Below are positions 7,201 to 29,432 of a DNA stretch of 64,000 nucleotides, piece by piece (position 1 is the first letter of the stretch; every line of letters starts with the position of its first letter). The stretch comes from Candidatus Parcubacteria bacterium (lineage in GTDB: Bacteria > Patescibacteriota > Minisyncoccia > Sungbacterales > SURF-37), in contig QZJO01000009.1 of the NCBI GenBank assembly GCA_003599755.1, positions 150,362 to 214,361 of the forward strand, written 5' to 3'. A model generated the notes under the pieces. It was given only the letters and a program-made list of their open reading frames with translations. It was not told the DNA's origin and made no database searches. A program made the position numbers and the translations under genes.

Positions 7201-7270
7201 GGAGGCTGAGAGTAGATACGCTTATATGACCCCAACGTAGCACACTTCGTTTCCGCGGAAATCATGCTAA

Positions 7271-7300: not shown

Positions 7301-7322
7301 TCCGCCGTGATGCAGAAAACGC

Positions 7323-7643: not shown

Positions 7644-7713
7644 CAACCTCCAGCGGTTCGTATTTGAGCGGTACCACGATCCCGACTCGATTGACAATCG
7701 GATTGACCGGCAA

Positions 7714-8484: not shown

Positions 8485-8487
8485 GGA

Positions 8488-11018: not shown

Positions 11019-11024
11019 ACGCTG

Positions 11025-12905
11025 CTATCGCCCCCTCCCGAGCCACCGCCGATGCCATAGCAAGAACACCATCAACGTCCAAAGCTGCTTGCGGTTGTCC
11101 CGCCGGCGGGCGCGATGGTCATCGAGCAGCCGCTGGACTTCAGCCGCGTCGAACAGGCCGACGGACGCAACCGAGCGAGGCGACAAAAGATCCGTCGCAA
11201 ATTCTCGAAGTTCGCCGTTCAGCCAGCGCGTCAACGGGATGCCGAAACCCTTTTTCGGCCGATCCGCGATGCCTGCCGGCAGTCGGGACCGCATGAGCGC
11301 CTTCAAAATGTATTTGGTCGTAAGGCCCCGGCATTTCCAATGGTACGGCAGCCGGTGCGCAAACTCCACGACGCGGTAATCGAGAAACGGCGCGCGCACT
11401 TCAAGGGCTGAACGCATGCTCGCGCGATCCACTTTCACGAGCACGCCATCCATCAGATACGCGCGCAGATATTCATACAGCACTCGCTGCATCGGGTCGG
11501 CATGCGCAAGCTCGGCGCGCCAGCGGTCCACGTCGTCGAATTCGTTTTCGGCCGCGAGCGCGCGCCACGCATCCGGCCGGAACAGGCGCGCGCGCTCGTC
11601 GCGATCGAACGCGGCAAGCCACCGCGCGTGACGATAGCGTTCCGGTCCGCGAAGCCCGCGCAGAAATCGCGTCGCCTTGAATCCGAAGCTGAAATTGGTG
11701 TCGCGCACCGGCAGGCGCGACACCCAGGACTCGGCTAATCCGCGCACCGCAGCGGGCAGCCGGCGTACGAACGCCGCGAGTCGTTCCGCGGGGAACGTCG
11801 GATAGCCGGCGAAAAGTTCGTCGCTGCCGTCGCCGCCGAGCGCGACGGTCACGCGGCGGCGGGCAAACTTCGCGAGCAAAGCGCTGGGCAACAGCGACGC
11901 GTCGGCCAACGGCTCATCGGCAAGATCGGCAATTTCCGGCACAAGCTTCAGTACGTCGCCGGCAACGAACGCCGTCTCATGGTGCGTGGTTCCGAGATAT
12001 TCGGCTACGCGCCGCGCATACGGCGCCTCGTCAAAACTCTCCTCGTGGAAGGAGATCGAAAACGTCTCGACCGGCGTACGACTCGCCTGGACCGCGTAGT
12101 AGGCCACGGTCGAGCTGTCCAGGCCTCCGGAGAGCAGCACGCCGACCGGCACGTCGGCCGCGAGGCGCGGAGTCACGCTTGCCGCGAGCAAACGATCGAG
12201 CTCGACCGTCGCATGCGCGAGGCCGATCGGCTCGGCCGGCGCATCCGGAAGGCGCCAATACGCGCCGGTGCGCTTCACGCCGTCCTTCCAGACCAGATAT
12301 GATGCCGGCGACAACTTTTGGATATGCTTGAAGATCGTCCGCGGGGCGGGAACGTATTCGTATGCGAGATACTTGTTGAGCGCGACCAGATCCAATTCGC
12401 GCGTCACCGCCGGATGCGCTACGAGCGCTTTCAATTCGGAACCGAATACCAGCGTATTGCCGAACGCGCCCCAGAAAAGCGGCTTTTTGCCGAAGCGATC
12501 GCGCGCGAGCGTAAGTTCGCCGGTCTTGGTGTCGAAGAGCGCGAGTGCGAACATGCCATTCAGCCGGGCGAATGCGCCGGTGCCGAATTCGTCCCAGAGC
12601 GCCAGAATGACCTCGGTGTCTGATTCCGAACGGAATGTTCGCCCGCGCGCGGCAAGTTCGGCGCGCAGTTCCCGGAAATTATAGATTTCGCCGTTAAACG
12701 TGATCCAAACCGTCCGGTCGGCGTTCGGCATGGGTTGGTGTCCGGCCGGGCTCAGGTCGAAAATCGCGAGGCGCGCGTGCGCAAGCCCCGCGCCCTCTCC
12801 CGTCCAAATACCGCCGCCGTCCGGTCCGCGGTACCGAATGGCGCCGATCATTTGTTCCAGATCATCCCGCCCGCCCGCACCGACGAATCCCGCGATGCCG
12901 CACAT
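11025..12905 (-). CDS. Asparagine synthetase (glutamine-hydrolysing) family amidotransferase, AsnB/WbpS/PseA-like
   Basis: Start at MCGIAGF (N-terminal nucleophile Cys2), RGPDGGG, SGGLDSS PP-loop motif; the upstream in-frame 56-codon extension is judged non-coding. Confidence 0.8.
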   Translation of the reverse strand: MCGIAGFVGAGGRDDLEQMIGAIRYRGPDGGGIWTGEGAGLAHARLAIFDLSPAGHQPMPNADRTVWITFNGEIYNFRELRAELAARGRTFRSESDTEVILALWDEFGTGAFARLNGMFALALFDTKTGELTLARDRFGKKPLFWGAFGNTLVFGSELKALVAHPAVTRELDLVALNKYLAYEYVPAPRTIFKHIQKLSPASYLVWKDGVKRTGAYWRLPDAPAEPIGLAHATVELDRLLAASVTPRLAADVPVGVLLSGGLDSSTVAYYAVQASRTPVETFSISFHEESFDEAPYARRVAEYLGTTHHETAFVAGDVLKLVPEIADLADEPLADASLLPSALLAKFARRRVTVALGGDGSDELFAGYPTFPAERLAAFVRRLPAAVRGLAESWVSRLPVRDTNFSFGFKATRFLRGLRGPERYRHARWLAAFDRDERARLFRPDAWRALAAENEFDDVDRWRAELAHADPMQRVLYEYLRAYLMDGVLVKVDRASMRSALEVRAPFLDYRVVEFAHRLPYHWKCRGLTTKYILKALMRSRLPAGIADRPKKGFGIPLTRWLNGELREFATDLLSPRSVASVGLFDAAEVQRLLDDHRARRRDNRKQLWTLMVFLLWHRRWLGRGR

Positions 12906-13880: not shown

Positions 13881-14942
13881 TTAGTGCACGTGGGACTCCA
13901 GAATTTGCTCGTCGGCTTCGATCATGACGCGGGCGGTCTTTCCGACGATTCGGTCGGCCATCGCCGGCGCCAATCCGCCTTTGCCCGGCCGTTTGAACGC
14001 GATCATATCCCGCGTAATAGCCATACCCGCCGCGATATCCCTGCGCGCCACGATAGCCTGGCTCGCCCAGTTGCGGCCGGTCTCGAGTCGCCGCAGCCGC
14101 TCTGCATCCGGCACCGGCCGCAAAGCCGCTTCCACATCGCGGATCTGGCGCACCATGAGCTTGAACTCCGCGGGCAAAAGCGCCCCCGGGTTATCGAGCG
14201 AACGCGGATCGTCCTTATCAAAGGTAAGGTGTTTTTCGACGACGCATGCGCCGAGCGCCACGGCAGCAAGGACAACCTGCCAGCCCACCGAATGATCCGA
14301 GATGCCGACCGGCAGGCCCGTCAATTCGCCGATGCGCCGCATCCGCGTAAGGTCGATTGCATCGTACGGCGTGGGATACAGCGTCGTACAATGCAGCGCG
14401 ATCATCGGCCCCGCGCCCGCCTGGCTGAGTGTGTCGATCGCGCGCACGACCTCGTCATCCGACTGTAAGCCGAACGATATCATGATGGGCTTTTTCGCCG
14501 CGCCGACCCGCTTGAGAAAATCTATGTTGCCCGCCTCCCCGGACCCGATCTTCAGAAACGGCGGATCGAATTCGCGGAGCAAAAGATCCAAACTCTCTTC
14601 CTCATGCGCCGTTGCGAAAAACGGGTAGCCCGCCGTGCGCGCGTAACGCGCGAGATCGGCGAGCGCCTCGAGTGATAGTTCCTTGTATTTCACGCGTTCG
14701 AACCAATCGAAGCCAAGCTCCGGCGCAAGGCGCTTGGCGACTTTCCTGCTGATTAATGCCTCGGTGTTCGTCACCTGAAACTTCACGATATCCGCACGCG
14801 CGGCCGCTGCGGCATCTACCTGGCGTTTGGCGAGTTCCAGATCTCCATAATTGGTAACGCCGCCTTCGCAAATAACGAAAACGGGTTGGCCGGGGCTGAT
14901 AATCCGACTGCCGGCGCGAAATGGCGGCTGGGATTGATTCAT
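13881..14942 (-). CDS. N-acetylneuraminate synthase family (NeuB/LegI/PseI-like) with C-terminal SAF domain, copy 2
   Basis: VFVICEGGVTNYGD motif, SAF-like C-terminus (IVARRDIAAGMAI...); start chosen at the ATG giving ATGA overlap with the upstream gene (alternative ATG at 14963). Confidence 0.8.
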   Translation of the reverse strand: MNQSQPPFRAGSRIISPGQPVFVICEGGVTNYGDLELAKRQVDAAAAARADIVKFQVTNTEALISRKVAKRLAPELGFDWFERVKYKELSLEALADLARYARTAGYPFFATAHEEESLDLLLREFDPPFLKIGSGEAGNIDFLKRVGAAKKPIMISFGLQSDDEVVRAIDTLSQAGAGPMIALHCTTLYPTPYDAIDLTRMRRIGELTGLPVGISDHSVGWQVVLAAVALGACVVEKHLTFDKDDPRSLDNPGALLPAEFKLMVRQIRDVEAALRPVPDAERLRRLETGRNWASQAIVARRDIAAGMAITRDMIAFKRPGKGGLAPAMADRIVGKTARVMIEADEQILESHVH

Positions 14943-15901
14943 AGCGGATGTCGGCGGCACCATTGCACGGTAAGCTCGGCGATATGAAGCATCGATTTTT
15001 CCGTGGCTTCTCTCGTAGCGCCGCCCAGATGCGGGACGATAATCATATTCTCATGAGTCCGGGCATAGTCAACCAGCGGATGCGTTTTGACGTGCGCGCC
15101 ATCGGGCGTCTCGCCGGCCAGCGTATCCACTGCCGCACCGGCAATGCGCTTGGCCTTGAGTGCAGCCAAGAGCGCGGATTCGTCCGCGATCTCGCCCCGC
15201 GCGGTATTGATGAACACTGCCGTCGGTTTCATCAGGCGGAAATGCCGGGCACCGAGCATACCGGCAGTTCTATCGCTGTACACGCAATGCACCGAAACGA
15301 CATCGGCGGCGCGCAACAGCGCGTTAAGCCCAGCGCGGCGCGCGCCGCCGCGAGCCATTGCGCTTGCCGAAACATACGGATCATAGGCGATCACGCGCAT
15401 GCCGAACGCGCGCGCATAGCGCGCGACATACGAACCGAGCCGCCCGAAGCCGATGACGCCGAAGGTCTTGCCGGCGAGCTCATGGCCACCGTACCGGCGC
15501 CGTTCCCAGCGCCCCGCCTCCAGCGAGCGCATGGCCCAGGGAATATTGCGCACGAGCGCGAGTACGAGCGCGAACGTCTCTTCGGCCGTGGACGGAATTT
15601 GGCGCAATACCGGGGAGTCGCCTTTGATATGCACGACAGCGATCCCCCGCCGCGCGGTTTCAGCGCGGTCGATGTGCCGCAGCTGTGTGGTGCGCGAGGC
15701 GACAAGCTCGAGGCGCGGCGCGCGATCCAGCACGGCTTTGGTGAAATTCACCTCCAGCCCTGCGACCACGACATGCGCGCGCGGCAAATTTTTAAAAAAC
15801 ACCGAGCGGCTGCCGAACGGAATAACGCGGCCGACGCGCGCCAGCATACGCATTGCCTGCGGGCTGAATTCCCGTTCTGCGATAAGGATAACGCGCTTCA
15901 T
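14939..15901 (-). CDS. D-isomer-specific 2-hydroxyacid dehydrogenase (NAD-binding; glycerate/phosphoglycerate dehydrogenase-like)
   Basis: GVIGFGRLGSYVARYARAFGMRV Rossmann motif; FINTARGEIADESAL; catalytic H in VPHLGG. Confidence 0.75.
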   Translation of the reverse strand: MKRVILIAEREFSPQAMRMLARVGRVIPFGSRSVFFKNLPRAHVVVAGLEVNFTKAVLDRAPRLELVASRTTQLRHIDRAETARRGIAVVHIKGDSPVLRQIPSTAEETFALVLALVRNIPWAMRSLEAGRWERRRYGGHELAGKTFGVIGFGRLGSYVARYARAFGMRVIAYDPYVSASAMARGGARRAGLNALLRAADVVSVHCVYSDRTAGMLGARHFRLMKPTAVFINTARGEIADESALLAALKAKRIAGAAVDTLAGETPDGAHVKTHPLVDYARTHENMIIVPHLGGATREATEKSMLHIAELTVQWCRRHPL

Positions 15902-16629
15902 ACGAGCCCTGCCCGAATTATGCATTCGGCGAGCGCCAAGTCGTTCGGCGTATTAATATCGAACGCGCCGAGCTCATCGATACCGAGACCGACGCGCCGA
16001 CCGACTTCAAGGCCGTGTTCTCGGAAAAATGCGTCGCGCCTGAACCAGTAGCAGTTGCCGAACGCATAGCGCCTGGGGTCCGATTGGCGCGTCGGATGGG
16101 CATAATGCATTTCGGGCTGATCGAATTCCAAAAATCCCTTATCAGTCATGCGGCGCACATGATAGGGATGGAAAATGCGCGGCACCTCGATACAGGTAAT
16201 GCCCGAATCGGCGCCCTTGGTCGTTACGAGTTCGAATAGCCGATCGATATGGTCCGACCGGATGAACGGTTCCGTGGGCTGAGCGAGCAACACGTATTCG
16301 GGTGCGTAGTGCTCATGCTCTTCAAGCCACCGGAGCGCATGATCCACGACGGGAATCATCGGCGTAGAATCCTCGGCCAATGCGGCAGGACGCACATACG
16401 GCGTCTCGGCGCCGTATTGGCGCGCAATCGCGGCGATCTCCTCGTTATCGGTATCGACGATCACCCGCCGTACTGAGTGCGCATGGTGTATTGCCGCCAA
16501 AACATACGCAAGCAACGGTTTACCGGCGAGGGGATGAATATTCTTTTTCGGAATCATTTTCGATCCCCCGCGTGCGGGAATGATCGCCAACGTTTCCTGC
16601 GGCTCGTCTCTGGTCACAGTCATGGTCAT
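15898..16629 (-). CDS. Acylneuraminate cytidylyltransferase family (CMP-nonulosonate synthetase), copy 2
   Basis: IIPARGGSKMIPKKNI motif; 243 aa. Confidence 0.8.
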   Translation of the reverse strand: MTMTVTRDEPQETLAIIPARGGSKMIPKKNIHPLAGKPLLAYVLAAIHHAHSVRRVIVDTDNEEIAAIARQYGAETPYVRPAALAEDSTPMIPVVDHALRWLEEHEHYAPEYVLLAQPTEPFIRSDHIDRLFELVTTKGADSGITCIEVPRIFHPYHVRRMTDKGFLEFDQPEMHYAHPTRQSDPRRYAFGNCYWFRRDAFFREHGLEVGRRVGLGIDELGAFDINTPNDLALAECIIRAGLV

Positions 16630-16695: not shown

Positions 16696-17883
16696 CTATA
16701 GCGATCGCGTCTGGCGCCACTGCACCGTCGGCATGATCGCCTCGCGGTTGATGGCTTCCTTGGCTTCGCTCACCCGCCGCAGGAGCGACTGCACCAGTTC
16801 ATCCGACAACGCGGTCGGCGTGAGCCCGAGACGCAGGAGGTGGTCGTTGCGCGGGTTGTAGTAGTGGTCTTCTGCTTCGACCCGCGGGTTCTCGATCCGG
16901 CGGATCGTCGCATCCCATCCGAGTATGCGAGCCGCGTCGCAGACGGCCTTGGCAAGCTCGAATACGGAAAAGACCTCGGTGAACTGATTGAACACCCGGA
17001 ATTCGCCTGCCGCGGGAGGGTTCATGGAGGCGAGCTCAACGCACTGAATGGTGTCGCGGATGTTGAGGAACCCGCGCTTCTGATTCCCTCCTCCGTACAC
17101 GGTGATCGGATGGCCGGTCGCCGCCTGCACGACGAAGCGGTTCAGCGCCGTTCCGAACACGTGATCGTAGTGGAAACTCGTCACGAGCCGCTCGTTCATG
17201 TCCGTCTCGGGAGTAGAGATGCCGTAGACGACTCCCTGGTTCAGATCGGTCGCCCGCAACTTCCAGATCCGGCAGGCGAAGGAAATGTTCCCCGAGTCGT
17301 GAACTTTGGACCAGTGGTACCAGGATCCTGCCTGCTTCGGAAACGGAAGGGTGTCCTTCCGCCCCCGATGTTCGATCTCGATGAAGCCCTCCTCGATGTC
17401 GATGTTCGGGGTTCCGTACTCACCCATGGTCCCGAGCTTCACGAGGTGCGCGTGCGGCACCACCTCCTGCATGGCGTACAGCACATTCAGGGTTCCGATG
17501 ACGTTGTTCCGCTGCGTGAACGTCGCGCGGCGATGATCGATCATCGAGTACGGCGCCGACGGCTGTTCGGCGTAGTGGATGATCGTCTCGGGCCGGAACT
17601 CCTGAAAGACGTCCTTCAGAAACTCGAAATCGCCCGCGATGTCGCCCAGAGAGCTTCGGATCCGGAGACCCGAGCACTCGCGCCAGGCGGCGAGTCGCTG
17701 CCGCAACGATGGAATCGGGAACAGCGGCATGGCGCCGACTTCCTCCTCCCACCGCCGCTTGGCCATGTTGTCTACGATCGCGACGTCATGCCCCTTGGCC
17801 GAGAAGTGCAGCGCCGTGGGCCAGCCAAGATACCCATCGCCGCCAAGAACCAGGATCCGGAGTGGGCGGAAGTCGATCCGCAT
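16696..17883 (-). CDS. UDP-sulfoquinovose synthase (SQD1/SqdB)-like extended SDR
   Basis: Diagnostic N-terminus RILVLGGDGYLGWPTALHFSAKGHDVAIVDNMAKRRWEEEVG matches the SQD1 signature (GGDGYCGWATAL...IVDNLVRR); strong SD AAGGAGG 4 nt before the ATG. Confidence 0.7.
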   Translation of the reverse strand: MRIDFRPLRILVLGGDGYLGWPTALHFSAKGHDVAIVDNMAKRRWEEEVGAMPLFPIPSLRQRLAAWRECSGLRIRSSLGDIAGDFEFLKDVFQEFRPETIIHYAEQPSAPYSMIDHRRATFTQRNNVIGTLNVLYAMQEVVPHAHLVKLGTMGEYGTPNIDIEEGFIEIEHRGRKDTLPFPKQAGSWYHWSKVHDSGNISFACRIWKLRATDLNQGVVYGISTPETDMNERLVTSFHYDHVFGTALNRFVVQAATGHPITVYGGGNQKRGFLNIRDTIQCVELASMNPPAAGEFRVFNQFTEVFSVFELAKAVCDAARILGWDATIRRIENPRVEAEDHYYNPRNDHLLRLGLTPTALSDELVQSLLRRVSEAKEAINREAIMPTVQWRQTRSL

Positions 17884-18003: not shown

Positions 18004-19170
18004 CTAGCGCCCGATGACGAGGCGCTTGCGAAAGAGCGTTTCGTTGAGCTCGAGCGCTTTGACGATCTCGAGCACCCTGTTGCTCGCGCGCCCGTCACCG
18101 TAGCGCCGGCCGCAGGAGGCGAGCGCGGCGCGGAAACCCGGATCGCGACCGACGAACTCGATCGCCTCGCGAATAGCCGGTACCGCCAGAGGAACGTCGC
18201 GAACATTCGCTTCCCGATCGCGTCCTTGCTGGCGCGCACCGATGTTCAAAGCGGGGAGACGGAAATACGGCGCCTCTACGAACGCTGCCGACGAATTCCC
18301 GAGCATCACCTCGGCGCCGGCCATCAGACCGAGAAAATCGAAATTCTCGATGTTCGGAAACAGCCGGAACCGCGGATGCCCTCGCCGCTGCTCCAGAACC
18401 TCGATGATTTCGTCATAGCCGGGATCCGAACACGGGTATACGGCGATCCACGTGTGGCCGCTCGCGATCGCCGCCGCACACACCCGTTCCGCGACTTCGC
18501 GGTTCTCCGATGCTCCGAGGAACGTATCGGGATGCAGGATGAGGATACCGTAGCGCTCGCCCGGGCCGATGCCGTAGCGCCCGGCCGCTTCGCCGGGCGG
18601 CGTATACATCTGGCGCAAGATACGATCGATGTAGAGCGAACCGACGGCGTGCACCCGCCATGATTCTTCACCGAGCGCCCGAATGCGGGAGGCCGCTTCT
18701 TCGGTCTCCGCGAAATGCACATGGGCGAGCTTCGTGATCGCGTGGCGCTGGATGTCGTCGATGTTGCCCGACACCTCGCCGCCCTGGGTATGCGTCACCG
18801 CAATACCGAGGGTTACTGCGGCAAGCGCCACGATGAGATGCTCCGCGCGATCGGCATGCACCATGACGATATCGGGCCGCTCGCGTTCGAGCAGGCGCGC
18901 GGCCTCGCTCATGCAGCGGCCGAGGTTTTCTGCCCGCACAAGCGCACTGCCTCCGCGTCCGGCCCCCATCTCGATGCGATGTATGGCGCGCGCGGGAAAA
19001 AGATTTTCTGCCTCCCGTACCGTCGCCCCGAACTCGGCGGCCAGATGCATGTCGCCGAGCAGGATCATGAGCTCGAGATCAGGATCGGCTTCGATCGCAC
19101 GCATGAGCGGTACATACGCGCCGAAGCCGCCGCGCTTTCCCGAAAAGGCGCAAATTTTTTTTGGCTTCAC
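18004..19170 (-). CDS. UDP-N-acetylglucosamine 2-epimerase family (NeuC/LegG/WecB-like)
   Basis: Epimerase_2-like layout, HTQGGEVSG motif; GTG start at 19168-19170 preceded by SD AGGGAGG. Confidence 0.7.
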   Translation of the reverse strand: MKPKKICAFSGKRGGFGAYVPLMRAIEADPDLELMILLGDMHLAAEFGATVREAENLFPARAIHRIEMGAGRGGSALVRAENLGRCMSEAARLLERERPDIVMVHADRAEHLIVALAAVTLGIAVTHTQGGEVSGNIDDIQRHAITKLAHVHFAETEEAASRIRALGEESWRVHAVGSLYIDRILRQMYTPPGEAAGRYGIGPGERYGILILHPDTFLGASENREVAERVCAAAIASGHTWIAVYPCSDPGYDEIIEVLEQRRGHPRFRLFPNIENFDFLGLMAGAEVMLGNSSAAFVEAPYFRLPALNIGARQQGRDREANVRDVPLAVPAIREAIEFVGRDPGFRAALASCGRRYGDGRASNRVLEIVKALELNETLFRKRLVIGR

Positions 19171-19244
19171 CGGCCGCCCTCCCTTCGTTCAAAGATCTTC
19201 GACGTGTTGCTTCCGATATTGGTATCGCCGATCGGCGATCGGTG

Positions 19245-20285
19245 TCAATGCTCTTGAACATAGATGTGTCGTGACAGCCGCAACGGCGGCGCGATCGCCG
19301 TCGGCGCGCCTCCTTCGACCCGAAACAGCGCTCGCCTGCCGCCCGGCGCATCATTCGCATCAATGCGCGCCAACAAGAGTGGTTCGGTCAACGATCGATT
19401 GAAGGCCCGCTCCATGGTAAATCCAATCTTCATGCCGGCCGCGCGCGCCGCATCGGCGACTGCGACATTCACCTGACTCGCCGTGCCATACGGATAGGAG
19501 ATGCTTCTGACGGCCTCGGGCCTGATTCCGGCCGCGCGCGCGACGGCATCGCGGCATATCCGGATATCCGCTGCGGCGTCATCCGGCTTCAGCAGTCCGA
19601 GCGGTCGATGCCGATAACCATGGATACCGAGGTATCCGCGCGCGGCTAGATCCTTAAGCCCCTCTTCCGATATGTACCACGCGCGGACGAATCCCGTATC
19701 GTCGCCGTGATGTTCCGTAAAAACATCGGCAACCAGACGTTCCTCAAGCTCTTGGCCCAAGACGCCTTTGGTAAGGACGTATTTCACGCGCGCATCTTCG
19801 AGCGCGTCATATGCGTATTGCGCGCGGACCATCGCGTCGGCAATGCCGAGCGATGCGAGGTCGAACGGCATCCCCGTTATCCGCGTATATGCCGTTCCGA
19901 TCTGCTCAAGCAATTCCGCGGGGGGCATATGCGCGCGGAGCCAATGAACCATATGGATATGGAGCGGTCGCTTCTCGGCATACGGCAATCCATTCGCGAA
20001 AAACAGGGCTGGGATGCCGAGCGCATCGAGTATTGGCAACGCAATCGCATATTGGTCCGCGAGGCCGTCATCAAACGTGATGACGCAGGCGCGTTCGGGA
20101 AGCGGTTGGTCTCCCGCGAGCGCCGCGAGGATATCGGCCTGGCCTACGAATGCGAATGCGCGCGCCAGTTCCTCAAGCTGGCGGCGAAACACGGCGGCGG
20201 AGATCGCATAGATCGCCGGATGCGGGTACGCCGCCTCGCCGATGTAATGATAATTGACGGCAAGTAACTGCATACCCGGTGGCAC
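19245..20285 (-). CDS. Polysaccharide deacetylase (NodB/CE4 homology domain)
   Basis: VITFDDGLADQY NodB motif 1. Confidence 0.65.
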   Translation of the reverse strand: MPPGMQLLAVNYHYIGEAAYPHPAIYAISAAVFRRQLEELARAFAFVGQADILAALAGDQPLPERACVITFDDGLADQYAIALPILDALGIPALFFANGLPYAEKRPLHIHMVHWLRAHMPPAELLEQIGTAYTRITGMPFDLASLGIADAMVRAQYAYDALEDARVKYVLTKGVLGQELEERLVADVFTEHHGDDTGFVRAWYISEEGLKDLAARGYLGIHGYRHRPLGLLKPDDAAADIRICRDAVARAAGIRPEAVRSISYPYGTASQVNVAVADAARAAGMKIGFTMERAFNRSLTEPLLLARIDANDAPGGRRALFRVEGGAPTAIAPPLRLSRHIYVQEH

Positions 20286-20397
20286 AACTTCGAAGTTAAC
20301 GAGTAAATCCCCTAACCGTGAAAACCGCTATGCGCATGCGACAACCACGCGGCGGCGGATCGGTGTGAAAAATTTTGAAGTAGCGCCGCCGGACATA

Positions 20398-21198
20398 TCA
20401 CGCGACGATGGGAAACCGCGCGTCGCGCCGGGCGCGGTCCGCAAGATACGCCGGGATCATGCCCTGGGCGAATCGCTCGCGCATGCGGCGGATAGCATCG
20501 GCGTTGAAATCGCGGTTGCGGAATAGTTTTCCGCCGCCTGGTTGCTGCAAAACGGGCAGCACGGACCCGGCGGCATAGTCCGCAAGCGTAGCCGCGAGCG
20601 TTCGCGCACCCGCCTCGATCGTGCGGCAGCCGATGGTATGACAGTCATCATCCGGACCCATCGCTGGCCGCACTTGCCGGAGAATCGGACCGGCATCCAC
20701 GCGCGCGCTGGCAAGATGAATCGTCGCGCCTACGCATTCGGGCTCGCCCTCGACGAGCGGCCAGAAGTTGGTCGCCGTGCCGCGATAGTATGGAGAGAGG
20801 CCGAGATGGATATTCACGACGCGGTCGGGAAACGCGTTCAGAAGCCGATCCTGAATAATGCTCGATCCGAAGAGCACCACGTACGTCGGCCGACGCTCTT
20901 GAATCCAGGCAAACGCGGCATCGCTGTTCGCTTCGCCGTGCGCAAGCGCCACCGTATGTTCGGCAGCAACCGGAAAGGATTGCGCCTGACCGAAAAACCG
21001 CTGCTCCGCCGCGGCGAATCCCTCAACGTGCTCGCGCATCAACGGATCGGATTCGGGCGCGGGCGCGGCACCGGCGCGCTTCCCTTCCGCGATCACGCCC
21101 GCAAGATCGCAAACGGCGGCCAGCGCGTACGCGAGAAACCGATGCCGCGGCTTGGTGCTGGTAATCAGTACGAGTGATGGACGAGTTGGCGCCCTCAT
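20398..21198 (-). CDS. Formyltransferase (Formyl_trans_N; sugar N-formyltransferase/Fmt-like)
   Basis: VLFGSSIIQDRLLNAFPDRVVNIHLGLSPYYRG (N10-formyl-THF binding HxSLLPxxxG-type motif); start taken at the internal ATG giving ATGA overlap (ORF extends to 21270). Confidence 0.7.
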   Translation of the reverse strand: MRAPTRPSLVLITSTKPRHRFLAYALAAVCDLAGVIAEGKRAGAAPAPESDPLMREHVEGFAAAEQRFFGQAQSFPVAAEHTVALAHGEANSDAAFAWIQERRPTYVVLFGSSIIQDRLLNAFPDRVVNIHLGLSPYYRGTATNFWPLVEGEPECVGATIHLASARVDAGPILRQVRPAMGPDDDCHTIGCRTIEAGARTLAATLADYAAGSVLPVLQQPGGGKLFRNRDFNADAIRRMRERFAQGMIPAYLADRARRDARFPIVA

Positions 21199-21959
21199 GC
21201 GTCGCGTTTTGTGCATGCGTATAATATATCGGTGCCGAACCAAGCGCGGAATCGCTCCCGTCCGAACCAAACGCGTTGAGCCCCCGCGACTTTGAGCCAG
21301 CCGAAGCGGCTCTGACGTAGTTTTGCGATATCTAGCGTATATTCGCGCGCGCGAATGCGGAACGCAGGCGAGAATATCTTCTCGACAAGCGCCGGAGTAA
21401 AAATAGCGATGTGGTTATTCTTCGTCGAGTAGCGTTCGAGCTCGCCGCTGCGCAGAAAATTCTTCCTACTGAGCAGTGAAGCGACGTTCGGCATAGACCA
21501 AAAGAATATGCCTCCGGGTTTCAACACGCGCGCGACTTCGCGGACGAAGTGAAACGGGTTTTCCAGATGCGGCAGCACGCACCATGCAGTAACGAGATCA
21601 AACGATGCATCCGGCCATGGCAGCGGATCGCTCGAAAGATCGGCAGTTTGAAAATCGCGAATCAGGCCGCGCTCGCGGATTTCCGACGCACGATAGTCGT
21701 CGATGTCCACGGCGGCGATCGTGCGGATGCCGATGCGTCCCAGTTCCTCTGCGAAGTAACCGCTTGCGGTTCCGCAATCGAGAGCGTGAAGCTCTGAAAA
21801 CAAGGGAAGCTCCGACCGCCACCGCTCAATAAATGCCGCACCAATCCCGGCTGCGTCGCCGAAATGCCCCTCGAGCGCCGCGCGGGCTTTCGCGGCGGCA
21901 GGGCCGCGGATTTCGGCCGCGGTCAAATACGGAAGCGTAATTCTGTCTTTCTTAGGCAT
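21195..21959 (-). CDS. Class I SAM-dependent methyltransferase
   Basis: LDCGTASGYFAEELG motif I, VLKPGGIFFWSMP; start at MPKKDRITL (ATG 21957-21959); the long upstream in-frame extension is judged non-coding. Confidence 0.7.
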   Translation of the reverse strand: MPKKDRITLPYLTAAEIRGPAAAKARAALEGHFGDAAGIGAAFIERWRSELPLFSELHALDCGTASGYFAEELGRIGIRTIAAVDIDDYRASEIRERGLIRDFQTADLSSDPLPWPDASFDLVTAWCVLPHLENPFHFVREVARVLKPGGIFFWSMPNVASLLSRKNFLRSGELERYSTKNNHIAIFTPALVEKIFSPAFRIRAREYTLDIAKLRQSRFGWLKVAGAQRVWFGRERFRAWFGTDILYACTKRDA

Positions 21960-23310
21960 GCGTGCGTATGCCGATATGCTCGAGAAGCGCGTCGGCCACG
22001 CGCTCGGATGCCTTTCCATCTGGGTCGCTGCCGTATTGTTCGCGGATGATACGCCGCCGGCCCTCGCGGTCGAGCGTCGGATCGGCCAGATACCGCCGAA
22101 TCCAGGCACGAAACTCGTCGGCGGTATCGGCGCGCGCAACACCCCCGCTTTCCAAAATAGCGCGGAAATGAATATACCCGTACGGCCGTACGCCTTCAAA
22201 GCCGGTCTTGGGCGTGCGGTGGAAATTGGCGATGATCGTCGGTTTGTCGAACAAAGCCGCCTCAATAGCGATCGTTGAGGGGCCCGTCACCACGAGATTC
22301 GCATGCCAGATGCCATTGACCAGCATCGCGTCGTCTTCGGGTGTAAGATCCCGATCGCCCACCCGGTTCGGGTCATAGGTAACGCCGGGGCGGTCAAAAT
22401 ACATATGCGGCGGCGGGACAAACCCCTCAAGGCCGCTTACGCGGTCTGCGGGCGGAAACCGCACGATGACATTCGCATCGAGCTCGGCCAGAATATCCAT
22501 CGCATAGCGGTCGACATCATTTTCGCGAATATAAAGGTCTCCTATGGGTGCGAAAAAAATCAGCGGCTTTGCGGGATCGGCGTTGATGCGCCTGAAAAAT
22601 TCTTCGCGCGGAATTTTCAGCCCTTTCAGATACTGATCATAGTGCGGAATACCGACCACGCGAATGCGCTCGGCCGGCATGCCGTCCAGTTCGATCGCCT
22701 CGCGCCGCAATCGCTCGCTCCATACGAGCAGCTCATCGGGAAAGATGCGCAATAAGCTATGGATGGTAAGGTTGTCCCAGGATCGCACCATGCCGATCGT
22801 CGGAATGCCGCGGCGCCGGGCATCATGCATGAGCGCGATATCGTTTTCGTTCAATATGTCCGTGGCAAACACTAAATCCGGGCGCATCCGATCGAGCAGA
22901 TCCCCGAACAGTTCGCGGGGCCCGAGCACGCGATCAAGCCACCGAACGATTCGCGGCGCGGCCTTGGTCCGGCCGATCGCTTGCGAACCGTAATAGAGCG
23001 CTCGATACCACCACGGCTTGCCCAGGTACATGAGGTATTCTTCACGAATCCGAATGCTTTCGGTCGCAAGCATCAAACGCGCAAGACGCTTGCAGAACAG
23101 TCCGCGGCGCGTGCGCGTCGGCCTGCTTGCGACAACGCCGACGATTTCGACATCCTGCCGGGCGAACCGATCCGTAAAGTAGGATACTTTATAATCCGGC
23201 ACAACGACGACGATCCGATGTCCTGCCGCGAGCAGGCGCGGAATGATATCGGTCGCGATGATGTTTCGGGAAATGAGGAGGTGGAAGCTCGTTATGAAGA
23301 TCGTTTTCAT
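21952..23310 (-). CDS. TagF/TagB-family (Glyphos_transf)-like protein, paralog 3
   Basis: VVGIPHYDQY, IFFAPIGD, TIAIEAALFDKPTIIANF; start MKTIFITSF chosen (ATGA overlap). Confidence 0.55.
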   Translation of the reverse strand: MKTIFITSFHLLISRNIIATDIIPRLLAAGHRIVVVVPDYKVSYFTDRFARQDVEIVGVVASRPTRTRRGLFCKRLARLMLATESIRIREEYLMYLGKPWWYRALYYGSQAIGRTKAAPRIVRWLDRVLGPRELFGDLLDRMRPDLVFATDILNENDIALMHDARRRGIPTIGMVRSWDNLTIHSLLRIFPDELLVWSERLRREAIELDGMPAERIRVVGIPHYDQYLKGLKIPREEFFRRINADPAKPLIFFAPIGDLYIRENDVDRYAMDILAELDANVIVRFPPADRVSGLEGFVPPPHMYFDRPGVTYDPNRVGDRDLTPEDDAMLVNGIWHANLVVTGPSTIAIEAALFDKPTIIANFHRTPKTGFEGVRPYGYIHFRAILESGGVARADTADEFRAWIRRYLADPTLDREGRRRIIREQYGSDPDGKASERVADALLEHIGIRTHA

Positions 23311-24683
23311 TCGTTCTTGTTCATGACGGCTAGGCGGCTTCGCGCGCCAAGAATCTTCGCGAGCCGCGCGCTCGCGCCCCCGTCCAGCCGCCAGGCCTCT
23401 TGGGTTACGATGCGTGCCCTGCCGGCGCGATCGAGCTCCGGATCGCTGCAATACCGTCCAATCCATTTCCGAAGCTCTTCAGGGCTTTCAGCAAAGCGGA
23501 TGCCGCCGGCGGCGCGCAATGAAGCAAAATGATCGTAATCGTAGTAACGCCGAATGCTCTCATAGTAGGGACGGTTCGGGGTCGGGTCAAAGGCGATCGC
23601 TATCGCCGGCGTATCGTAGACCGCGGCGTCGATGAGAATCGTTGAGGGGCCGCCAACCACGACTTCCGCAAATGCGAGCGAATCGCGCAGCACCTCATCG
23701 TCCTCCAGCGTCAATTCGTTGTGCTTGAATCCTTTGCCCGTCCCCAGCTGCCGCCCGGGCCGGTGCACGAGCGCGGCGGGCGGCAGATCGGCCGCGATGC
23801 GCATGCTATCGCTCGGCGGAAGCCGCACCACGATCCGCCATCCCGCAGGCAGCGCATCCGCCAACAGCCGGATGACGAATCCGTCCAGATCGTTTTGGCC
23901 CAAATACCGATCCCCGGTCGGCGCGTAGAGCACGAACCGCTCGTCCGGCCGAAGGCCGAGACGCGCGGCGAAATCAGCGCGCGCATGCGGCGGCGCGCCG
24001 CCGTACCGGTCATAATGCGGGATGCCGATGACCTGAAGCGCCCCGCGCGGAATGCCATGGTACCGCGCCGCTTCTTCCGCGACGAGCTCGTTATTGACGA
24101 CAAGCGTGTCCGGAATCGTACGGACGAGACCTTTCGCCGTCAGATTGTCCCAGGAACGCACCATACCGATCGTCGGCACGCCCGCATCGCGCGCCGCCTC
24201 GATAAGACGTGCATCGGCATCCTGTTGGACATCGGTTGCGAACACCGCATCCGGCCGATACGCGCGCACAATAGCGCCGAATGGCTCGCGCGGCGCGAGC
24301 CAGCGGCTTACCTGCCGGATCAACGCCTGCGCCCAGCGCCGGTTACCGATCAGACGGACGAGCAGCGCGCCGCGGCCGCCCAATTCGGTCTTGCGCTTAA
24401 TCGCCAGCGAATGGGTATCCGTCGCCGCGAGCGCGAGATAGCGCAGCGCGGCCTCAAACCGCGTTGATGCGAACGCGACCGGATGGATAATAAGGCCGGG
24501 TCGCAAAAATTCCGAAAGAAAAAACAATTGCTTCTCTACAGGAACCAGCAGAACGACGCGCGTCGCGCCATCGGCAAGCAACGCATCCAGAAGCGGCGAC
24601 GATATGATGTTACGAGAAATAAGGACGTGAAAACTCGTCATGAGTATCGTCCTCGGTCGAACGGTCGGTGGTTGGCTAGTCAT
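23307..24683 (-). CDS. TagF/TagB-family (Glyphos_transf)-like protein, paralog 4
   Basis: VIGIPHYDRY, FVLYAPTGDRY, TILIDAAVYDTPAIAIAF. Confidence 0.55.
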   Translation of the reverse strand: MTSQPPTVRPRTILMTSFHVLISRNIISSPLLDALLADGATRVVLLVPVEKQLFFLSEFLRPGLIIHPVAFASTRFEAALRYLALAATDTHSLAIKRKTELGGRGALLVRLIGNRRWAQALIRQVSRWLAPREPFGAIVRAYRPDAVFATDVQQDADARLIEAARDAGVPTIGMVRSWDNLTAKGLVRTIPDTLVVNNELVAEEAARYHGIPRGALQVIGIPHYDRYGGAPPHARADFAARLGLRPDERFVLYAPTGDRYLGQNDLDGFVIRLLADALPAGWRIVVRLPPSDSMRIAADLPPAALVHRPGRQLGTGKGFKHNELTLEDDEVLRDSLAFAEVVVGGPSTILIDAAVYDTPAIAIAFDPTPNRPYYESIRRYYDYDHFASLRAAGGIRFAESPEELRKWIGRYCSDPELDRAGRARIVTQEAWRLDGGASARLAKILGARSRLAVMNKNE

Positions 24684-27173: not shown

Positions 27174-28379
27174 TCACTTTTCTGAGCGGCGGTAATAAAG
27201 TTCCTCCAGTACCCGGGCAATGCGCTTGATATCTTGATTCTTGATAGCCGGATGGCAGCCGATGAGCAGCGCCCGGTTATGTAAAAAATCCGCTACCGGG
27301 AATGCATCGGGCTTTGGCGTATCCTGACCGAGAAATGCATACTGCCGAAGTAAATTGCCGCCCATGAAGCGCCGCGTTTCCACACCTACCCGCTCCAGTG
27401 CCGCGGCTACATCGGCCGCATCGCGGCAGCCGGGCGGCAACTGGCGGAGCGTCACCTGTAGCGCGTAATACGTATTGAATGAGCTCTTTGGCTCTTCTGG
27501 CAAAAATAATTTCTCATCCCGGATTAGCTTCCCGAACGCTCGCCAGTACGCCGCGACGATCGCGCGCCGCTTCCGGTTCATAGCCGGAAGTTTTTCGAGC
27601 TGCACCATGCCGATCGCCGCATGCAGATCCGTCATGCGCAGATTATAGCCGAGCCGATCGAACGCATAGCGCACATCATAGCGCGAGCCGGACGCGAGCT
27701 TCACAAACCGCTCGTTCGTGATGCGGCGGCCGAATTCGCGGATGGAACGGCAGAGATCCGCGAGCTTCGCGTCATCGGTCGCGATCATGCCGCCTTCGCC
27801 CGCGGTCATATTGTGCGCGACATAAAACGATGTCGTCGAAGCATCGCCGAAGCCACCGACGATCGTCTTCCCGACTTTCGCGCCGTGTGATTCGCAGCCG
27901 TCTTCCAAGATGCGGATACGATGGCGGCGCGCCCAGCGCACGATCTTGGGCGCATCGAGACACGGTACGCCGAGCGAATGTACGAGCACAATACCGCGCA
28001 GTCGCTTCGCGCCCGCAGCGGCGTGTTCAAGCGCTTCAAGCGTCATATTCCCCCGCTCATCTACGTCCACCCAGAGCGGCCGGAGACCGGCTTGCAGCAC
28101 CGGCATGACCGCGGTCGCGAATGTCAGCGCGGGTACGGCAACAAAATCGCCATCCTTCCAGCCATAGCGTTCTTTCACCGCAAGAAGCGCGATGAGATTC
28201 GCAGAAGAGCCGGAATTCGCGGCAATCGCCGTGCGCCGGCCGACTGCGCGCGCCCATGCGTCTTCGAACGCGCGAACGAACGGCCCCTGGCTCAATCGAC
28301 CCTGCTTAAGAACGTGCATCACCGCCGCAATTTCGCGTCGATCCGTGATCGGCCAGCCAATGGATACTCGCGTAGACAT
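27174..28379 (-). CDS. DegT/DnrJ/EryC1/StrS family PLP/PMP enzyme; His replaces the Schiff-base Lys (ColD/E1-like sugar 3-dehydratase signature)
   Basis: AIAANSGSSANLIALLA and TSFYVAHNMTAGEGGMIA; aligns to family motif sFhptKnlt-GEGG with H189 at the K position. Confidence 0.7.
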   Translation of the reverse strand: MSTRVSIGWPITDRREIAAVMHVLKQGRLSQGPFVRAFEDAWARAVGRRTAIAANSGSSANLIALLAVKERYGWKDGDFVAVPALTFATAVMPVLQAGLRPLWVDVDERGNMTLEALEHAAAGAKRLRGIVLVHSLGVPCLDAPKIVRWARRHRIRILEDGCESHGAKVGKTIVGGFGDASTTSFYVAHNMTAGEGGMIATDDAKLADLCRSIREFGRRITNERFVKLASGSRYDVRYAFDRLGYNLRMTDLHAAIGMVQLEKLPAMNRKRRAIVAAYWRAFGKLIRDEKLFLPEEPKSSFNTYYALQVTLRQLPPGCRDAADVAAALERVGVETRRFMGGNLLRQYAFLGQDTPKPDAFPVADFLHNRALLIGCHPAIKNQDIKRIARVLEELYYRRSEK

Positions 28380-28388: not shown

Positions 28389-29432
28389 TCATTCGGTCTT
28401 ATTTGGATGATCCTTGTACCACTCGTACGTCCGTCGCAATCCTTCCTCGAACGGAATTTCCGGCCTCCAGCCGGCCAGACGCTCCAGTTTCGTAATGTCG
28501 GGCAGCCGTCGCTTTACGCTGCCGGCCGGTGCGGGCTTACGAACCAATTCGCGCGGCGTCCAACCCGCAATTGCGAACAGCGCATCGGCAAGTGCGGCAA
28601 CACTTACCTCATTACGGTCACCGATATGCACGGTCTCGATGGGCTGGCCGTCGGTGGCCGAAGATTCCATGAGCATGCGCATAGCGCGGACCGCATCCTC
28701 GATATAGCAGAACGAGCGCGTCTCGTCCGCACCCATGAGCGCGAACGGATCCTCTCGGCTCGCGATCCGAAGCGAGAGCTGCGGAATCACGTGCTCGTAG
28801 CCCGCGCGCGGACCATAGAAATTATGCGGCCGTACGACCAGGCCGCGCAATCCGTACTTGGTCGCGTAATGAATCATGATCTGCTCGCCGATAAGCTTCG
28901 TGCCTGCATACGACCAGCGGGGGTTATACGGATCTTCGATCACGAGCGGCACGGCTTCGGGCGTAGGGAACGGCAGCGCGCCGAACGCGTGCAGCCCGCC
29001 GGCATACGCCTCGTTCGACGACGTAAAGCATATCTTGGCGCCGGGATTTTGGGCGCGCATCCAATCAAGGACAAAGAAAAGCGAAAGAATATTGATGCGC
29101 AGCACTTCATGCGGCATTTCGTAAAAGTTCTTCGTTCCATTGATCGCTGCAAGATGATAGATATGCGTAAAACCGGTACCGAGTTCTCCGTACGCAGCCG
29201 CGTTGGTCAAGTCAAGCGCCATAAAACGCACGCGCGGATTGGCGATGAGTTTATCGAACGCATCATCCATCCGACCGCGCTGCAAATTATCGGCGCTCAC
29301 GAGGTCGGCCTTGGTGGCGGTAAGCAAATGCCGCGCGAGGTGATAGCCGATGAACCCTGCACCTCCGGTGATGAGAATTTTTTCAGGCGCTGCCATGCGA
29401 TTCATCATGCCAAGCCGGGGCTGAAACGACAA
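28389..29432 (-). CDS. NAD-dependent nucleotide-sugar epimerase/dehydratase (extended SDR)
   Basis: ILITGGAGFIGYHLARHL, YAGTK active-site motif; start ambiguous among several N-terminal ATGs. Confidence 0.75.
   Translation of the reverse strand: MSFQPRLGMMNRMAAPEKILITGGAGFIGYHLARHLLTATKADLVSADNLQRGRMDDAFDKLIANPRVRFMALDLTNAAAYGELGTGFTHIYHLAAINGTKNFYEMPHEVLRINILSLFFVLDWMRAQNPGAKICFTSSNEAYAGGLHAFGALPFPTPEAVPLVIEDPYNPRWSYAGTKLIGEQIMIHYATKYGLRGLVVRPHNFYGPRAGYEHVIPQLSLRIASREDPFALMGADETRSFCYIEDAVRAMRMLMESSATDGQPIETVHIGDRNEVSVAALADALFAIAGWTPRELVRKPAPAGSVKRRLPDITKLERLAGWRPEIPFEEGLRRTYEWYKDHPNKTE

Follow-up and report, generated by a model that had tools for sequence, protein, structure and literature searches.

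The window, a 64,000-nucleotide stretch of DNA from a Candidatus Parcubacteria bacterium, carries on its minus strand a gene for a putative sugar N-formyltransferase which, judging from the genes around it, lies in a nonulosonic-acid (sialic-acid-like sugar) operon. In this genome, from the candidate phyla radiation (CPR), glycan genes take up at least 48 kb, and those that bear on the formyltransferase are as follows:

13881–14942, minus strand: NeuB-family nonulosonate synthase (Pfam NeuB, E 3.3e-59, plus a SAF domain; TIGR03569, 256 bits, below cut-off)
15898–16629, minus strand: CMP-nonulosonate synthetase, NeuA/LegF/PseF-like (CTP_transf_3, E 3.9e-22; TIGR03584, E 9.8e-41, below cut-off)
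16696–17883, same strand block: SDR enzyme, SQD1-like
18004–19170, minus strand: NeuC/LegG-type hydrolysing UDP-GlcNAc 2-epimerase (TIGR03568, 302.7 bits, above the cut-off of 235.9)
19245–20273, minus strand: CE4 de-N-acetylase, 342 residues (Pfam Polysacc_deac_1, E 2.9e-16; PgaB-like by NCBIfam and PDB matches)
20398–21198, minus strand: likely formyltransferase coding sequence, 266 residues; the Formyl_trans_N fold stands alone and is followed by a short helical tail at the C-terminus
21195–21198, minus strand: ATGA overlap of the methyltransferase stop and the formyltransferase start (read directly from the sequence and the ORF ends)
21195–21959, minus strand: SAM-dependent methyltransferase, 254 residues, immediately upstream (Pfam Methyltransf_11, E 6.8e-18; gene call on the source contig)
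27174–28379, minus strand: sugar aminotransferase of the DegT family, which belongs to the same strand block and lies about 6 kb upstream (DegT_DnrJ_EryC1, E 4.3e-77; no NCBIfam equivalog cut-off reached)
28389–29408, same strand block: SDR enzyme

The minus-strand reading frame spans 20398–21270 and gives 290 residues from a TTG, and an ATG at 21198 gives an intact protein of 266 residues. We take 20398–21198 as the likely coding sequence because this ATG overlaps the methyltransferase stop codon and because homologues begin at the same point. The overlap suggests translational coupling of the methyltransferase and formyltransferase genes; the CE4 gene follows 124 bp downstream on the same strand, and a promoter and terminator scan of 18900–22400 returned sites no more numerous than in shuffled controls, compatible with one operon. 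An earlier note, made from the letters of this DNA, had placed a sugar N-formyltransferase candidate in a sugar locus beside a deacetylase and a methyltransferase, and the NeuC, CMP-nonulosonate synthetase and NeuB homologues of the operon, together with the two flanking genes, bear this out. The NeuB-family synthase finds its top PDB match in Neisseria meningitidis NeuB (E 9e-41) and scores below the equivalog cut-offs of both NeuB and PseI. The deacetylase has no N-terminal hydrophobic segment, and its family keeps H9, T66-D68-D69-G70, H107, H110, H218 and H222 invariant.

Fold and catalytic site of the formyltransferase

The protein matches Pfam Formyl_trans_N (PF00551) with an E-value of 1.2e-14 (55 bits against a cut-off of 26.1, profile positions 64–178), and the Pfam search returned no match to Formyl_trans_C (PF02911) anywhere in its 266 residues. 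An AF2 model predicts the formyltransferase fold with confidence (pLDDT 94.3) and renders the C-terminus as three short helices rather than the tRNA-binding (OB-fold) domain of Fmt. Foldseek searches with this model placed the N-terminal domains of Fmt and ArnA at the top with probability 1.0, a value also reached by WbkC and PurN, and in structural alignments no solved structure exceeds 24% identity. The description in the earlier note, an Fmt-type N-terminal domain of about 270 residues that lacks the tRNA-binding domain, was therefore accurate, and the motif that it had picked out, NIHLGLSPYYRG, is real and occupies residues 129–140.

The Asn-His-Asp triad, which the earlier note had left to be checked, is present as N129, H131 and D168 and aligns in register with N102, H104 and D140 of ArnA. 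All three residues, along with HLGLSPYY(R)G, are invariant across the 32 family members that we aligned, as is an additional pair that is specific to the family:

20695–20697, minus strand: codon of D168, the third triad residue
20779–20814, minus strand: catalytic Asn/His and folate-loop motif, N129-I-H131-L-G-L-S-P-Y-Y-R-G140
21142–21147, minus strand: codons of R18-H19, the family-specific pair just after strand beta-1 (32 of 32 sequences)

From its position the R18-H19 pair may contact the acceptor. We predict that the protein is an N10-formyl-tetrahydrofolate-dependent transformylase of the Formyl_trans_N superfamily, and the company kept by its relatives lends indirect support to folate dependence: a gene for SHMT, with or without FolD, adjoins the formyltransferase gene in three independent loci, and one homologue, which has SHMT and FolD genes beside it, carries a fused 5-formyl-THF cyclo-ligase domain.

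A formyltransferase family and its gene neighbourhoods

Sequence comparison assigns the enzyme to a distinct, large and uncharacterised family of about 265 residues, comprising 638 clusters at 50% identity and found in 311 species genomes from many phyla. The closest non-identical relatives share about 53% identity over 97–100% of the length (E about 1e-80 to 1e-85), a match far beyond chance. Homologues are automatically annotated as "PurN" or "methionyl-tRNA formyltransferase". The curated models score the window protein well below their cut-offs: 45.1 bits against 201.5 for TIGR00460 (fmt), 49.4 against 150.1 for TIGR00639 (PurN), 23.4 against 285.95 for TIGR00655 (PurU), 29.6 against 238 for NF005755 (dTDP-4-amino-4,6-dideoxyglucose formyltransferase) and, for the ArnA models, 50.1 against 777 (NF005998) and 57 against 316 (PRK06988), with no decarboxylase domain. 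We rejected orthology to Fmt, PurN, PurU and ArnA on these NCBIfam scores below cut-off and on the missing C-terminal domain. Of the likeness to WbkC, VioF and the ArnA N-terminal domain that had been proposed at the outset, the fold, the triad and the lack of a tRNA-binding domain stand; the enzyme itself belongs to a separate family and is an orthologue of none of WbkC, VioF, ArnA and PseJ.

We collected the gene neighbourhoods of 85 family members, 54 of which are well covered, having 8 kb or more of flanking sequence on each side. A homologue of the window deacetylase occurs in 53 of the 54, and across all 85 loci it directly adjoins the formyltransferase on the same strand in 67. Among the well-covered loci, 44 have a NeuA homologue, 43 a NeuC homologue and 37 a NeuB homologue; at least one of the three is in view in 70 of the 85, with the CE4/formyltransferase pair typically embedded between them. 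About a fifth of the well-covered loci (roughly 10 of 54) have no NeuA within 8–10 kb, and some of these (L089, L057 and L058) have other glycan genes only. A DegT aminotransferase homologue lies within 8–10 kb in only 11 of the 54, and a methyltransferase homologue is near in only 9. Six-gene cassettes, for example methyltransferase-NeuB-NeuC-formyltransferase-CE4-NeuA at positions 6874–12553 of Anaerolineaceae CP070708.1 (locus L002), stand alone amid unrelated genes and contain neither an aminotransferase nor a dehydratase. The two domains are also joined in single polypeptides, with the deacetylase at residues 2–259 and the formyltransferase at 340–606 of one protein (P0152) and the reverse order in another (P0161), both of them metagenome gene calls that could be frameshift artefacts. 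The separate family, the near-obligate coupling to CE4 and the merely occasional presence of the methyltransferase all go beyond the earlier note.

When the scan was turned round to start from the deacetylase family, 40 loci had enough flanking sequence on either side, and in 24 of these the formyltransferase was adjacent. The other 16 have no formyltransferase, and most of them still have NeuB, NeuC or NeuA homologues nearby. Beside the deacetylase in such loci we find a GNAT acyltransferase (7 loci, none of which has a formyltransferase), a sulfotransferase (4 loci, plus 1 that does have a formyltransferase) or, in some, an adjoining methyltransferase. Across the two scans, the formyltransferase appears to need the deacetylase, whereas the deacetylase does not appear to need the formyltransferase. 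Such a one-way dependence would follow if the amine came from the deacetylase and were capped by a partner that differs from locus to locus.

Proposed exchange of an N-acetyl for an N-formyl group

We lean towards a reading in which the protein is a cytoplasmic sugar N-formyltransferase that acts after the CE4 deacetylase, as the second half of a two-enzyme module for N-acyl editing. The PgaB-like deacetylase would de-N-acetylate an intermediate in a NeuC/NeuB/NeuA-type nonulosonic-acid pathway, and the formyltransferase would then formylate the freed amine at its Asn129-His131-Asp168 site, with N10-formyl-THF as donor, so that the displayed sugar would end with an N-formyl in place of an N-acetyl group, most simply at N5. 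What the analysis shows is that the protein has the fold and catalytic residues of a formyltransferase and no tRNA-binding domain, and that its gene is coupled almost obligately to that of the deacetylase and linked to genes for nonulosonate and folate metabolism. We infer from sequence and gene context which reaction would come first, what the acceptor would be and at which stage it would be modified (as a free sugar, a UDP-sugar or a CMP-sugar), and the nitrogen concerned; because aminotransferases are few, with most clusters having none within about 8–10 kb that could provide a different amine, the acetamido nitrogen is the likely target.

The window itself also holds features that count against such a swap, namely the DegT aminotransferase and SDR enzymes 6–9 kb upstream, together with the finding of no hexapeptide N-acetyltransferase among the window ORFs scanned, so the enzyme could here formylate an aminotransferase-made amine instead. 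It would then replace PseJ or LegH and act on the DegT-installed 4-amino group of an NDP-4-keto-6-deoxy-HexNAc, the nitrogen that would become N7 in a legionaminic-type sugar, with the CE4 enzyme independently freeing N5. The SDR enzymes on either side of the formyltransferase gene would fit this route. So would two precedents: PseJ, with solved structures, formylates a UDP-4-amino sugar in the pseudaminic-acid pathway, and Ca. Kuenenia, where the authors place a formyltransferase in the LegH position, makes CMP-sugars with one formyl group and one free amine, plus a methyl (+14 Da), much like the product expected here (bioRxiv 10.64898/2026.04.20.719630). We nevertheless regard this route as unlikely: across the family DegT accompanies the formyltransferase in 11 well-covered loci against 53 for the CE4 partner, and the stand-alone NeuB-NeuC-formyltransferase-CE4-NeuA cassettes lack the enzymes that it calls for. 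It accounts neither for the rarity of the formyltransferase away from the deacetylase nor for the GNATs that take its place beside the deacetylase, and the window protein is only remotely similar to PseJ.

The fifth or so of the well-covered loci without a nearby NeuA suggest that the substrate of the pair may be a hexosamine precursor and not a nine-carbon sugar. The two enzymes would turn UDP-GlcNAc or another HexNAc into an N-formyl hexosamine, which might or might not go on to NeuC and NeuB; the target would then be an ordinary glycan amino sugar, as the loci with other glycan genes only would allow. The closest solved relatives (ArnA, WbkC and QdtF-type enzymes) all act on nucleotide-hexoses. 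Set against this are the 70 of 85 loci with a NeuA, NeuB or NeuC homologue and the usual position of the pair between them, as well as the deacetylase-only loci, which are also mostly NeuBCA clusters, and we consider hexosamine editing improbable.

ArnD, the CE4-family deformylase, suggests a further arrangement, in which transient formylation pulls an unfavourable transamination and the CE4 enzyme removes the formyl group to leave a free amine. The ArnA N-terminal domain is the closest in sequence among solved structures, and the window also encodes a UDP-sugar dehydrogenase, an SDR enzyme, an aminotransferase and a GT2 glycosyltransferase. A dedicated deformylase would not be expected to lack the formyltransferase in 16 of 40 loci, however; aminotransferases are absent near most loci, and the CE4 protein resembles PgaB and matches no ArnD model at E-values up to 1e-5. 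We down-weighted an ArnD-like role for the CE4 gene on the lack of an ArnD model match and on the occurrence of its family without the formyltransferase, and the arrangement as a whole seems very improbable. Finally, the chance that a housekeeping one-carbon enzyme (Met-tRNA formyltransferase, PurN or PurU) sits in the sugar locus by accident is negligible: the common fold and triad and the automatic annotations are what it would offer, against curated equivalog scores all 3- to 15-fold below cut-off, the absent tRNA-binding domain, the gene's embedding in an operon with apparent translational coupling, and the family-wide linkage to glycan genes.

Beyond the proposed replacement of acetyl by formyl at this locus, a broader reading is possible, one that we offer tentatively and think rather doubtful as a whole: the CE4 de-N-acetylase may be the hub of a widespread and previously unrecognised N-acyl editing of sialic-acid-like sugars, in which an interchangeable neighbour (formyltransferase, GNAT or sulfotransferase) recaps the amine, in CPR bacteria and at least 10 other phyla. 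Clusters with NeuC, NeuB and NeuA only would then make CMP-5-N-formylneuraminic acid. Our literature search found no report of natural N-formylneuraminic acid, and a search joining formyltransferase, polysaccharide deacetylase and sialic acid returned nothing.

The N-substituents of sialic-acid-like sugars set surface charge, recognition by phages and lectins, and immune visibility, and the enzymes that install substituents other than acetyl are largely unknown. If the exchange of acetyl for formyl is correct, the family supplies the missing step that turns the UDP-GlcNAc-derived N-acetyl nitrogen into an N-formyl one, as in 5-N-formyl-legionaminic acid. A CE4 gene beside a Formyl_trans_N gene of about 265 codons within a NeuBCA cluster would then be a genomic marker that predicts N-formyl nonulosonates in hundreds of uncultured lineages, including Parcubacteria, whose cell surface presumably matters for contact with other cells. 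Carriers of the family also include cultured Flavobacteriaceae with the same module, which makes the N-formyl prediction directly testable. Among the cultured carriers are Christiangramia sabulilitoris, Zunongwangia atlantica, Salinimicrobium catena, Gillisia mitskevichiae DSM 19839, Salegentibacter salinarum DSM 23400 and Rhodohalobacter sulfatireducens.

Comparison with known formylation systems

The closest solved structure by sequence, the N-terminal domain of ArnA (PDB 2BLN/1YRW/1Z7E; E 7e-15, profile E 1.6e-18), shares with the window protein its fold, the triad and a similar H-x-x-L-x-P-x-x-R-G loop, and its pathway likewise pairs a formyltransferase with a CE4-family enzyme, ArnD. Unlike ArnA, the window protein has neither the Fmt-like C-terminal subdomain nor the fused decarboxylase, and its PgaB-like partner is predicted to deacetylate before formylation, whereas the partner of ArnA deformylates after it. 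The small sugar N-formyltransferases WbkC, VioF, WlaRD, QdtF/FdtF and Rv3404c are similar in their length of about 240–270 residues, their fold and triad, their lack of a tRNA-binding domain and their glycan loci (profile E 1e-9 to 1e-13; 16–22% identity in structural alignments). They differ from the window protein in the N-terminal half, where it has an insert at about residues 39–50 and the invariant R18, H19, E38, H57 and E65, and in gene context, which is that of dTDP- or GDP-deoxyhexoses rather than nonulosonates.

PseJ from Anoxybacillus kamchatkensis (PDB 6CI2/6CI4) is also a short, stand-alone Formyl_trans_N enzyme in a nonulosonic-acid cluster, and its product, Pse5Ac7Fo, is an N-formyl nonulosonate. 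Its similarity to the window protein is confined to residues 106–194 (E 2e-6), and its substrate is made by an aminotransferase, whereas members of the present family accompany a deacetylase and, in most cases, have no aminotransferase close by. We know of no CE4 partner of PseJ.

[quoted passage not shown] In Ca. Kuenenia, CMP-nonulosonates carry a formyl group and the cluster encodes both a deacetylase and a formyltransferase (bioRxiv 10.64898/2026.04.20.719630). In this legionaminic-type cluster of Ca. Kuenenia stuttgartiensis (KSMBR1_RS09820-09860), genes for a WbqC protein and a putative formyltransferase accompany that of the PIG-L deacetylase. Both clusters pair a deacetylase with a formyltransferase among nonulosonate genes, and the window has a methyltransferase beside the pair as well; the Kuenenia deacetylase belongs to the PIG-L/LmbE superfamily and not to CE4, so this precedent is analogous rather than homologous. 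A functional analogy only, with unrelated proteins, is offered by the eukaryotic, polymer-acting heparan sulfate N-deacetylase/N-sulfotransferase (NDST), which removes an N-acetyl group and recaps the amine with a different group, and some of the CE4-only loci have a sulfotransferase where the formyltransferase would otherwise sit.

The formyltransferase and its gene

The enzyme encoded beside the CE4 deacetylase gene of the sialic-acid-like sugar operon is very probably an N-formyltransferase that depends on N10-formyl-THF and has an amino-sugar intermediate of the nonulosonate pathway as its acceptor. The genes concerned are:

19245-20273 (-), CE4, PgaB-like deacetylase
20398-21198 (-), formyltransferase
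21195-21959 (-), methyltransferase

The longest formyltransferase reading frame (20398..21270, minus strand, 290 aa) has a TTG start, and the ATG at 21198 gives 266 aa. This ATG overlaps the end of the methyltransferase gene upstream in an ATGA that contains its TGA stop, the source contig's own gene call has the 266-aa start, and homologues start at the same position in the alignment, so that 20398-21198, where the earlier note had placed the gene, is the likely coding sequence. A site scan found no terminator-like sites above background between the methyltransferase, formyltransferase, and deacetylase genes. The source contig (263,839 bp; its proteins include ClpB, RJQ36833.1, and NeuB, RJQ36799.1) belongs to a MAG whose deposited name is Candidatus Parcubacteria bacterium, and GC content is ~60%.

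The protein matches Pfam Formyl_trans_N (E 1.2e-14, profile positions 64-178), and a Pfam search finds no Formyl_trans_C domain. We rejected a curated orthologue of Fmt, PurN, ArnA, and the like, since every matching NCBIfam equivalog scores far under its cut-off: PRK06988 (57 against 316), ArnA (50 against 777), PurN (49 against 150), fmt (45 against 201.5), and dTDP-4-amino-4,6-dideoxyglucose formyltransferase (30 against 238). The top solved-structure match is the ArnA N-terminal domain (E 7e-15 for the single sequence and 1.6e-18 for the family profile), followed by the LgrA F domain, PurN, WbkC, QdtF-type enzymes, PseJ, and Fmt. N129/H131/D168 align in register with ArnA N102/H104/D140 and, together with HLGLSPYY(R)G, are unchanged across 32 homologues. 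An AlphaFold2 model built from the alignment of these homologues is confident (pLDDT 94.3, pTM 0.91) and retrieves only formyltransferases with Foldseek (TM-scores ~0.6, identity at most 24%); its C-terminal ~35 residues form three short helices, which replace the OB-fold domain of Fmt and ArnA. These domain, score, structural, and catalytic-residue results bear out the earlier note's observation of an enzyme lacking the tRNA-binding C-terminal domain, as well as the tests it proposed, on the Asn-His-Asp triad and on orthology to Fmt.

The nearest non-identical relatives (~53% identity, 97-100% of length, E ~1e-80 to 1e-85) are annotated at source as hypothetical, 'PurN' or 'methionyl-tRNA formyltransferase'. 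Searching 1.84 billion cluster representatives with a profile gives 638 clusters at E <=1e-30, and scanning a single genome for each species by motif turns up family members in 311 genomes, including CPR bacteria (Harrisonbacteria, Komeilibacteria, Saccharibacteria, Parcubacteria), Anaerolineae, many Flavobacteriaceae, Planctomycetota, Acidobacteriota, Gemmatimonadota, Proteobacteria, Actinomycetota, and, among archaea, one Hadarchaeota. Five invariant residues of the N-terminal half (R18, H19, E38, H57, E65) are the family's own, lying outside the generic profile, and we infer that they may take part in acceptor binding.

The surrounding glycan island

As the earlier note said, the gene lies within a sugar locus. 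The same-strand run of glycan genes encodes a UDP-sugar dehydrogenase, an SDR enzyme, a DegT aminotransferase, three glycosyltransferase-like proteins, the methyltransferase, formyltransferase, and CE4 deacetylase, a NeuC-type hydrolysing 2-epimerase (exceeding the TIGR03568 cut-off), a UDP-sulfoquinovose-synthase-like SDR enzyme, a CMP-nonulosonate synthetase, a 2-hydroxyacid dehydrogenase, a NeuB-family synthase, a GT2 protein, and an AsnB-like amidotransferase. Further features of the island and its flanks are:

306-1241 (-), epimerase/dehydratase, second nonulosonate set
1313-2671 and 2668-4032 (-), two Glyphos_transf-like proteins, second set
4029-4760 (-), CTP_transf_3 cytidylyltransferase, second set
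4948-6150 (-), 400 aa, no Pfam match
6229-7200 (-), second NeuB-family synthase
9057-11018 (-), 653 aa, no Pfam match
11025-12905 (-), AsnB-like glutamine-dependent amidotransferase, same operon
14939-15901 (-), PGDH-like 2-hydroxyacid dehydrogenase, between the cytidylyltransferase and NeuB genes
16696-17883 (-), 395-aa SDR enzyme, between the NeuC and CMP-nonulosonate synthetase genes
21952-23310 and 23307-24641 (-), two ~450-aa paralogues with faint Glyphos_transf/GT4 and BFO_1060-family matches
31686-32570 (-), 294 aa, no Pfam match
40413-42131 (-), 572 aa, no Pfam match
46878-48689 (-), 603-aa flanking protein with lamin-tail and PKD domains
53588-57325 (-), 1245-aa flanking protein with a peptidoglycan-binding domain

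Consecutive glycan genes, including several GT4, GT2, and PMT_2 transferases, a flippase, and methyltransferases, extend over 306-50681 (nearly 50 kb); CPR genomes are usually small, and the island looks like a large investment for one. With the second set at 306-7200 (-), whose NeuB and cytidylyltransferase part spans 4029-7200, the island may yield two different nine-carbon sugars. The SDR enzyme at 16696-17883 has strong homology to UDP-sulfoquinovose synthase (NF041015, E 8e-144, 479 bits, cut-off 575) and close homologues in related loci L004, L037, L048, L064, and L069 (E ~1e-130 to 1e-153), and PAPS-reductase or CysNC genes occur in some related loci (L004, L089); a sulfonated sugar or nonulosonate may result. 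The AsnB-like enzyme might, speculatively, amidate the sugar or turn an N-acyl group into an amidine, the ~450-aa paralogues are candidate nonulosonate transferases, and the two flanking products could be surface proteins or targets of glycosylation.

The formyltransferase and CE4 across genomes

We collected 85 non-redundant formyltransferase loci, translated all ORFs, and searched them with the window proteins. In the 54 loci that extend 8 kb or more to each side, homologues are found of CE4 (53), NeuA (44), NeuC (43), NeuB (37), the Glyphos_transf-like glycosyltransferases (36, where they adjoin the formyltransferase/CE4 pair), AsnB (19, often directly after NeuA or the formyltransferase), the 2-hydroxyacid dehydrogenase (13), the DegT aminotransferase (11), and the methyltransferase (9); Pfam-annotated example loci give a similar picture. 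A same-strand CE4 gene lies immediately beside the formyltransferase in 67/85 loci (49 upstream, 18 downstream), and a complete Anaerolineaceae chromosome carries a self-contained MT-NeuB-NeuC-FT-CE4-NeuA cassette (MT, methyltransferase; FT, formyltransferase) with unrelated genes on either side. Among the homologous proteins, P0152 (612 aa) carries a full-length CE4 half ahead of a full-length formyltransferase half, P0161 joins the pair in the opposite order, and P0119 (L004:8001-9347) fuses 5-formyl-THF cyclo-ligase to the formyltransferase, in a locus with SHMT and FolD genes beside the CE4 gene; all three fusions were predicted on metagenome sequence, where a frameshift artefact could have produced them. 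In three independent loci, of which two are CPR, an SHMT gene lies beside the pair, either alone or together with FolD. Fusions and neighbours thus tie the formyltransferase and CE4 to each other and to folate.

The reciprocal scan of metagenome contigs with the CE4-family alignment gave 80 loci, 40 with room on both sides; the formyltransferase adjoins CE4 in 24 of these and is missing from 16, most of which still have NeuB, NeuC or NeuA homologues in view. The formyltransferase therefore requires CE4 (98%), and CE4 does not need the formyltransferase (60%). In the formyltransferase-negative loci other group-transfer enzymes touch CE4: a GNAT acyltransferase in seven (gaps of 3-7 bp; none in positive loci), a sulfotransferase in four (and in one positive locus), and a methyltransferase in one; elsewhere the neighbour is a protein without Pfam match. 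Examples in NeuBCA clusters, with GNAT, sulfotransferase or methyltransferase beside CE4, are L148:6907-7746, L155:2089-2931, L122:2977-3933, L132:2047-2958, and L108:5076-5990. This suggests that the CE4 neighbours are interchangeable capping enzymes, and the asymmetry is expected if CE4 frees an amine that a variable partner caps.

CE4 resembles the PgaB deacetylase domain and keeps the metal and catalytic motifs (H9, TFDDG at 66-70, H107, H110, H218, H222, YPYG). It begins directly at the catalytic domain, with no signal peptide visible in the sequence, so a cytoplasmic substrate is plausible.

A putative acetyl-to-formyl exchange and known systems

On balance, the acceptor is probably the amine freed by CE4, a reading drawn from sequence and gene context: CE4 would deacetylate and the formyltransferase would then formylate, replacing the N-acetyl group with N-formyl, in the simplest case at N5. 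This nitrogen of nonulosonates comes from the 2-acetamido group of UDP-GlcNAc, and the exchange could occur on UDP-GlcNAc, ManNAc, the free nonulosonate or the CMP-sugar. The main rival, a less likely one, is a PseJ-like route in which a DegT-made 4-amino group is formylated and CE4 acts on the other nitrogen; the window itself is compatible with it, having a DegT gene 6 kb upstream of the formyltransferase and no hexapeptide acetyltransferase among the ORFs scanned. The asymmetry argues against CE4 as a dedicated ArnD-kind deformylase.

Overall, the earlier note's candidate sugar N-formyltransferase beside a deacetylase and a methyltransferase is a real finding with a supported interpretation. 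The enzyme is best filed as a separate, widespread sugar N-formyltransferase family, defined by its near-obligate CE4 partner and nonulosonate context; its chemistry is expected, and the module is uncharacterised and broadly distributed, including in CPR bacteria, with cultured Flavobacteriaceae allowing a direct test.

Our literature search, of incomplete coverage, found no paper describing the CE4/formyltransferase pairing and no mention of a natural N-formylneuraminic acid, an absence that is not proof. [quoted passage not shown] PV6, for which a formyltransferase gene is predicted only and no deacetylase is named in the text (PMC6137143). The CMP-nonulosonates of Ca. Kuenenia carry one formyl, one free amine, and an optional methyl, and their cluster encodes a PIG-L deacetylase, a WbqC protein, and a formyltransferase (bioRxiv 10.64898/2026.04.20.719630). 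That module is analogous to the CE4/formyltransferase module, but its PIG-L deacetylase belongs to a different superfamily from CE4.
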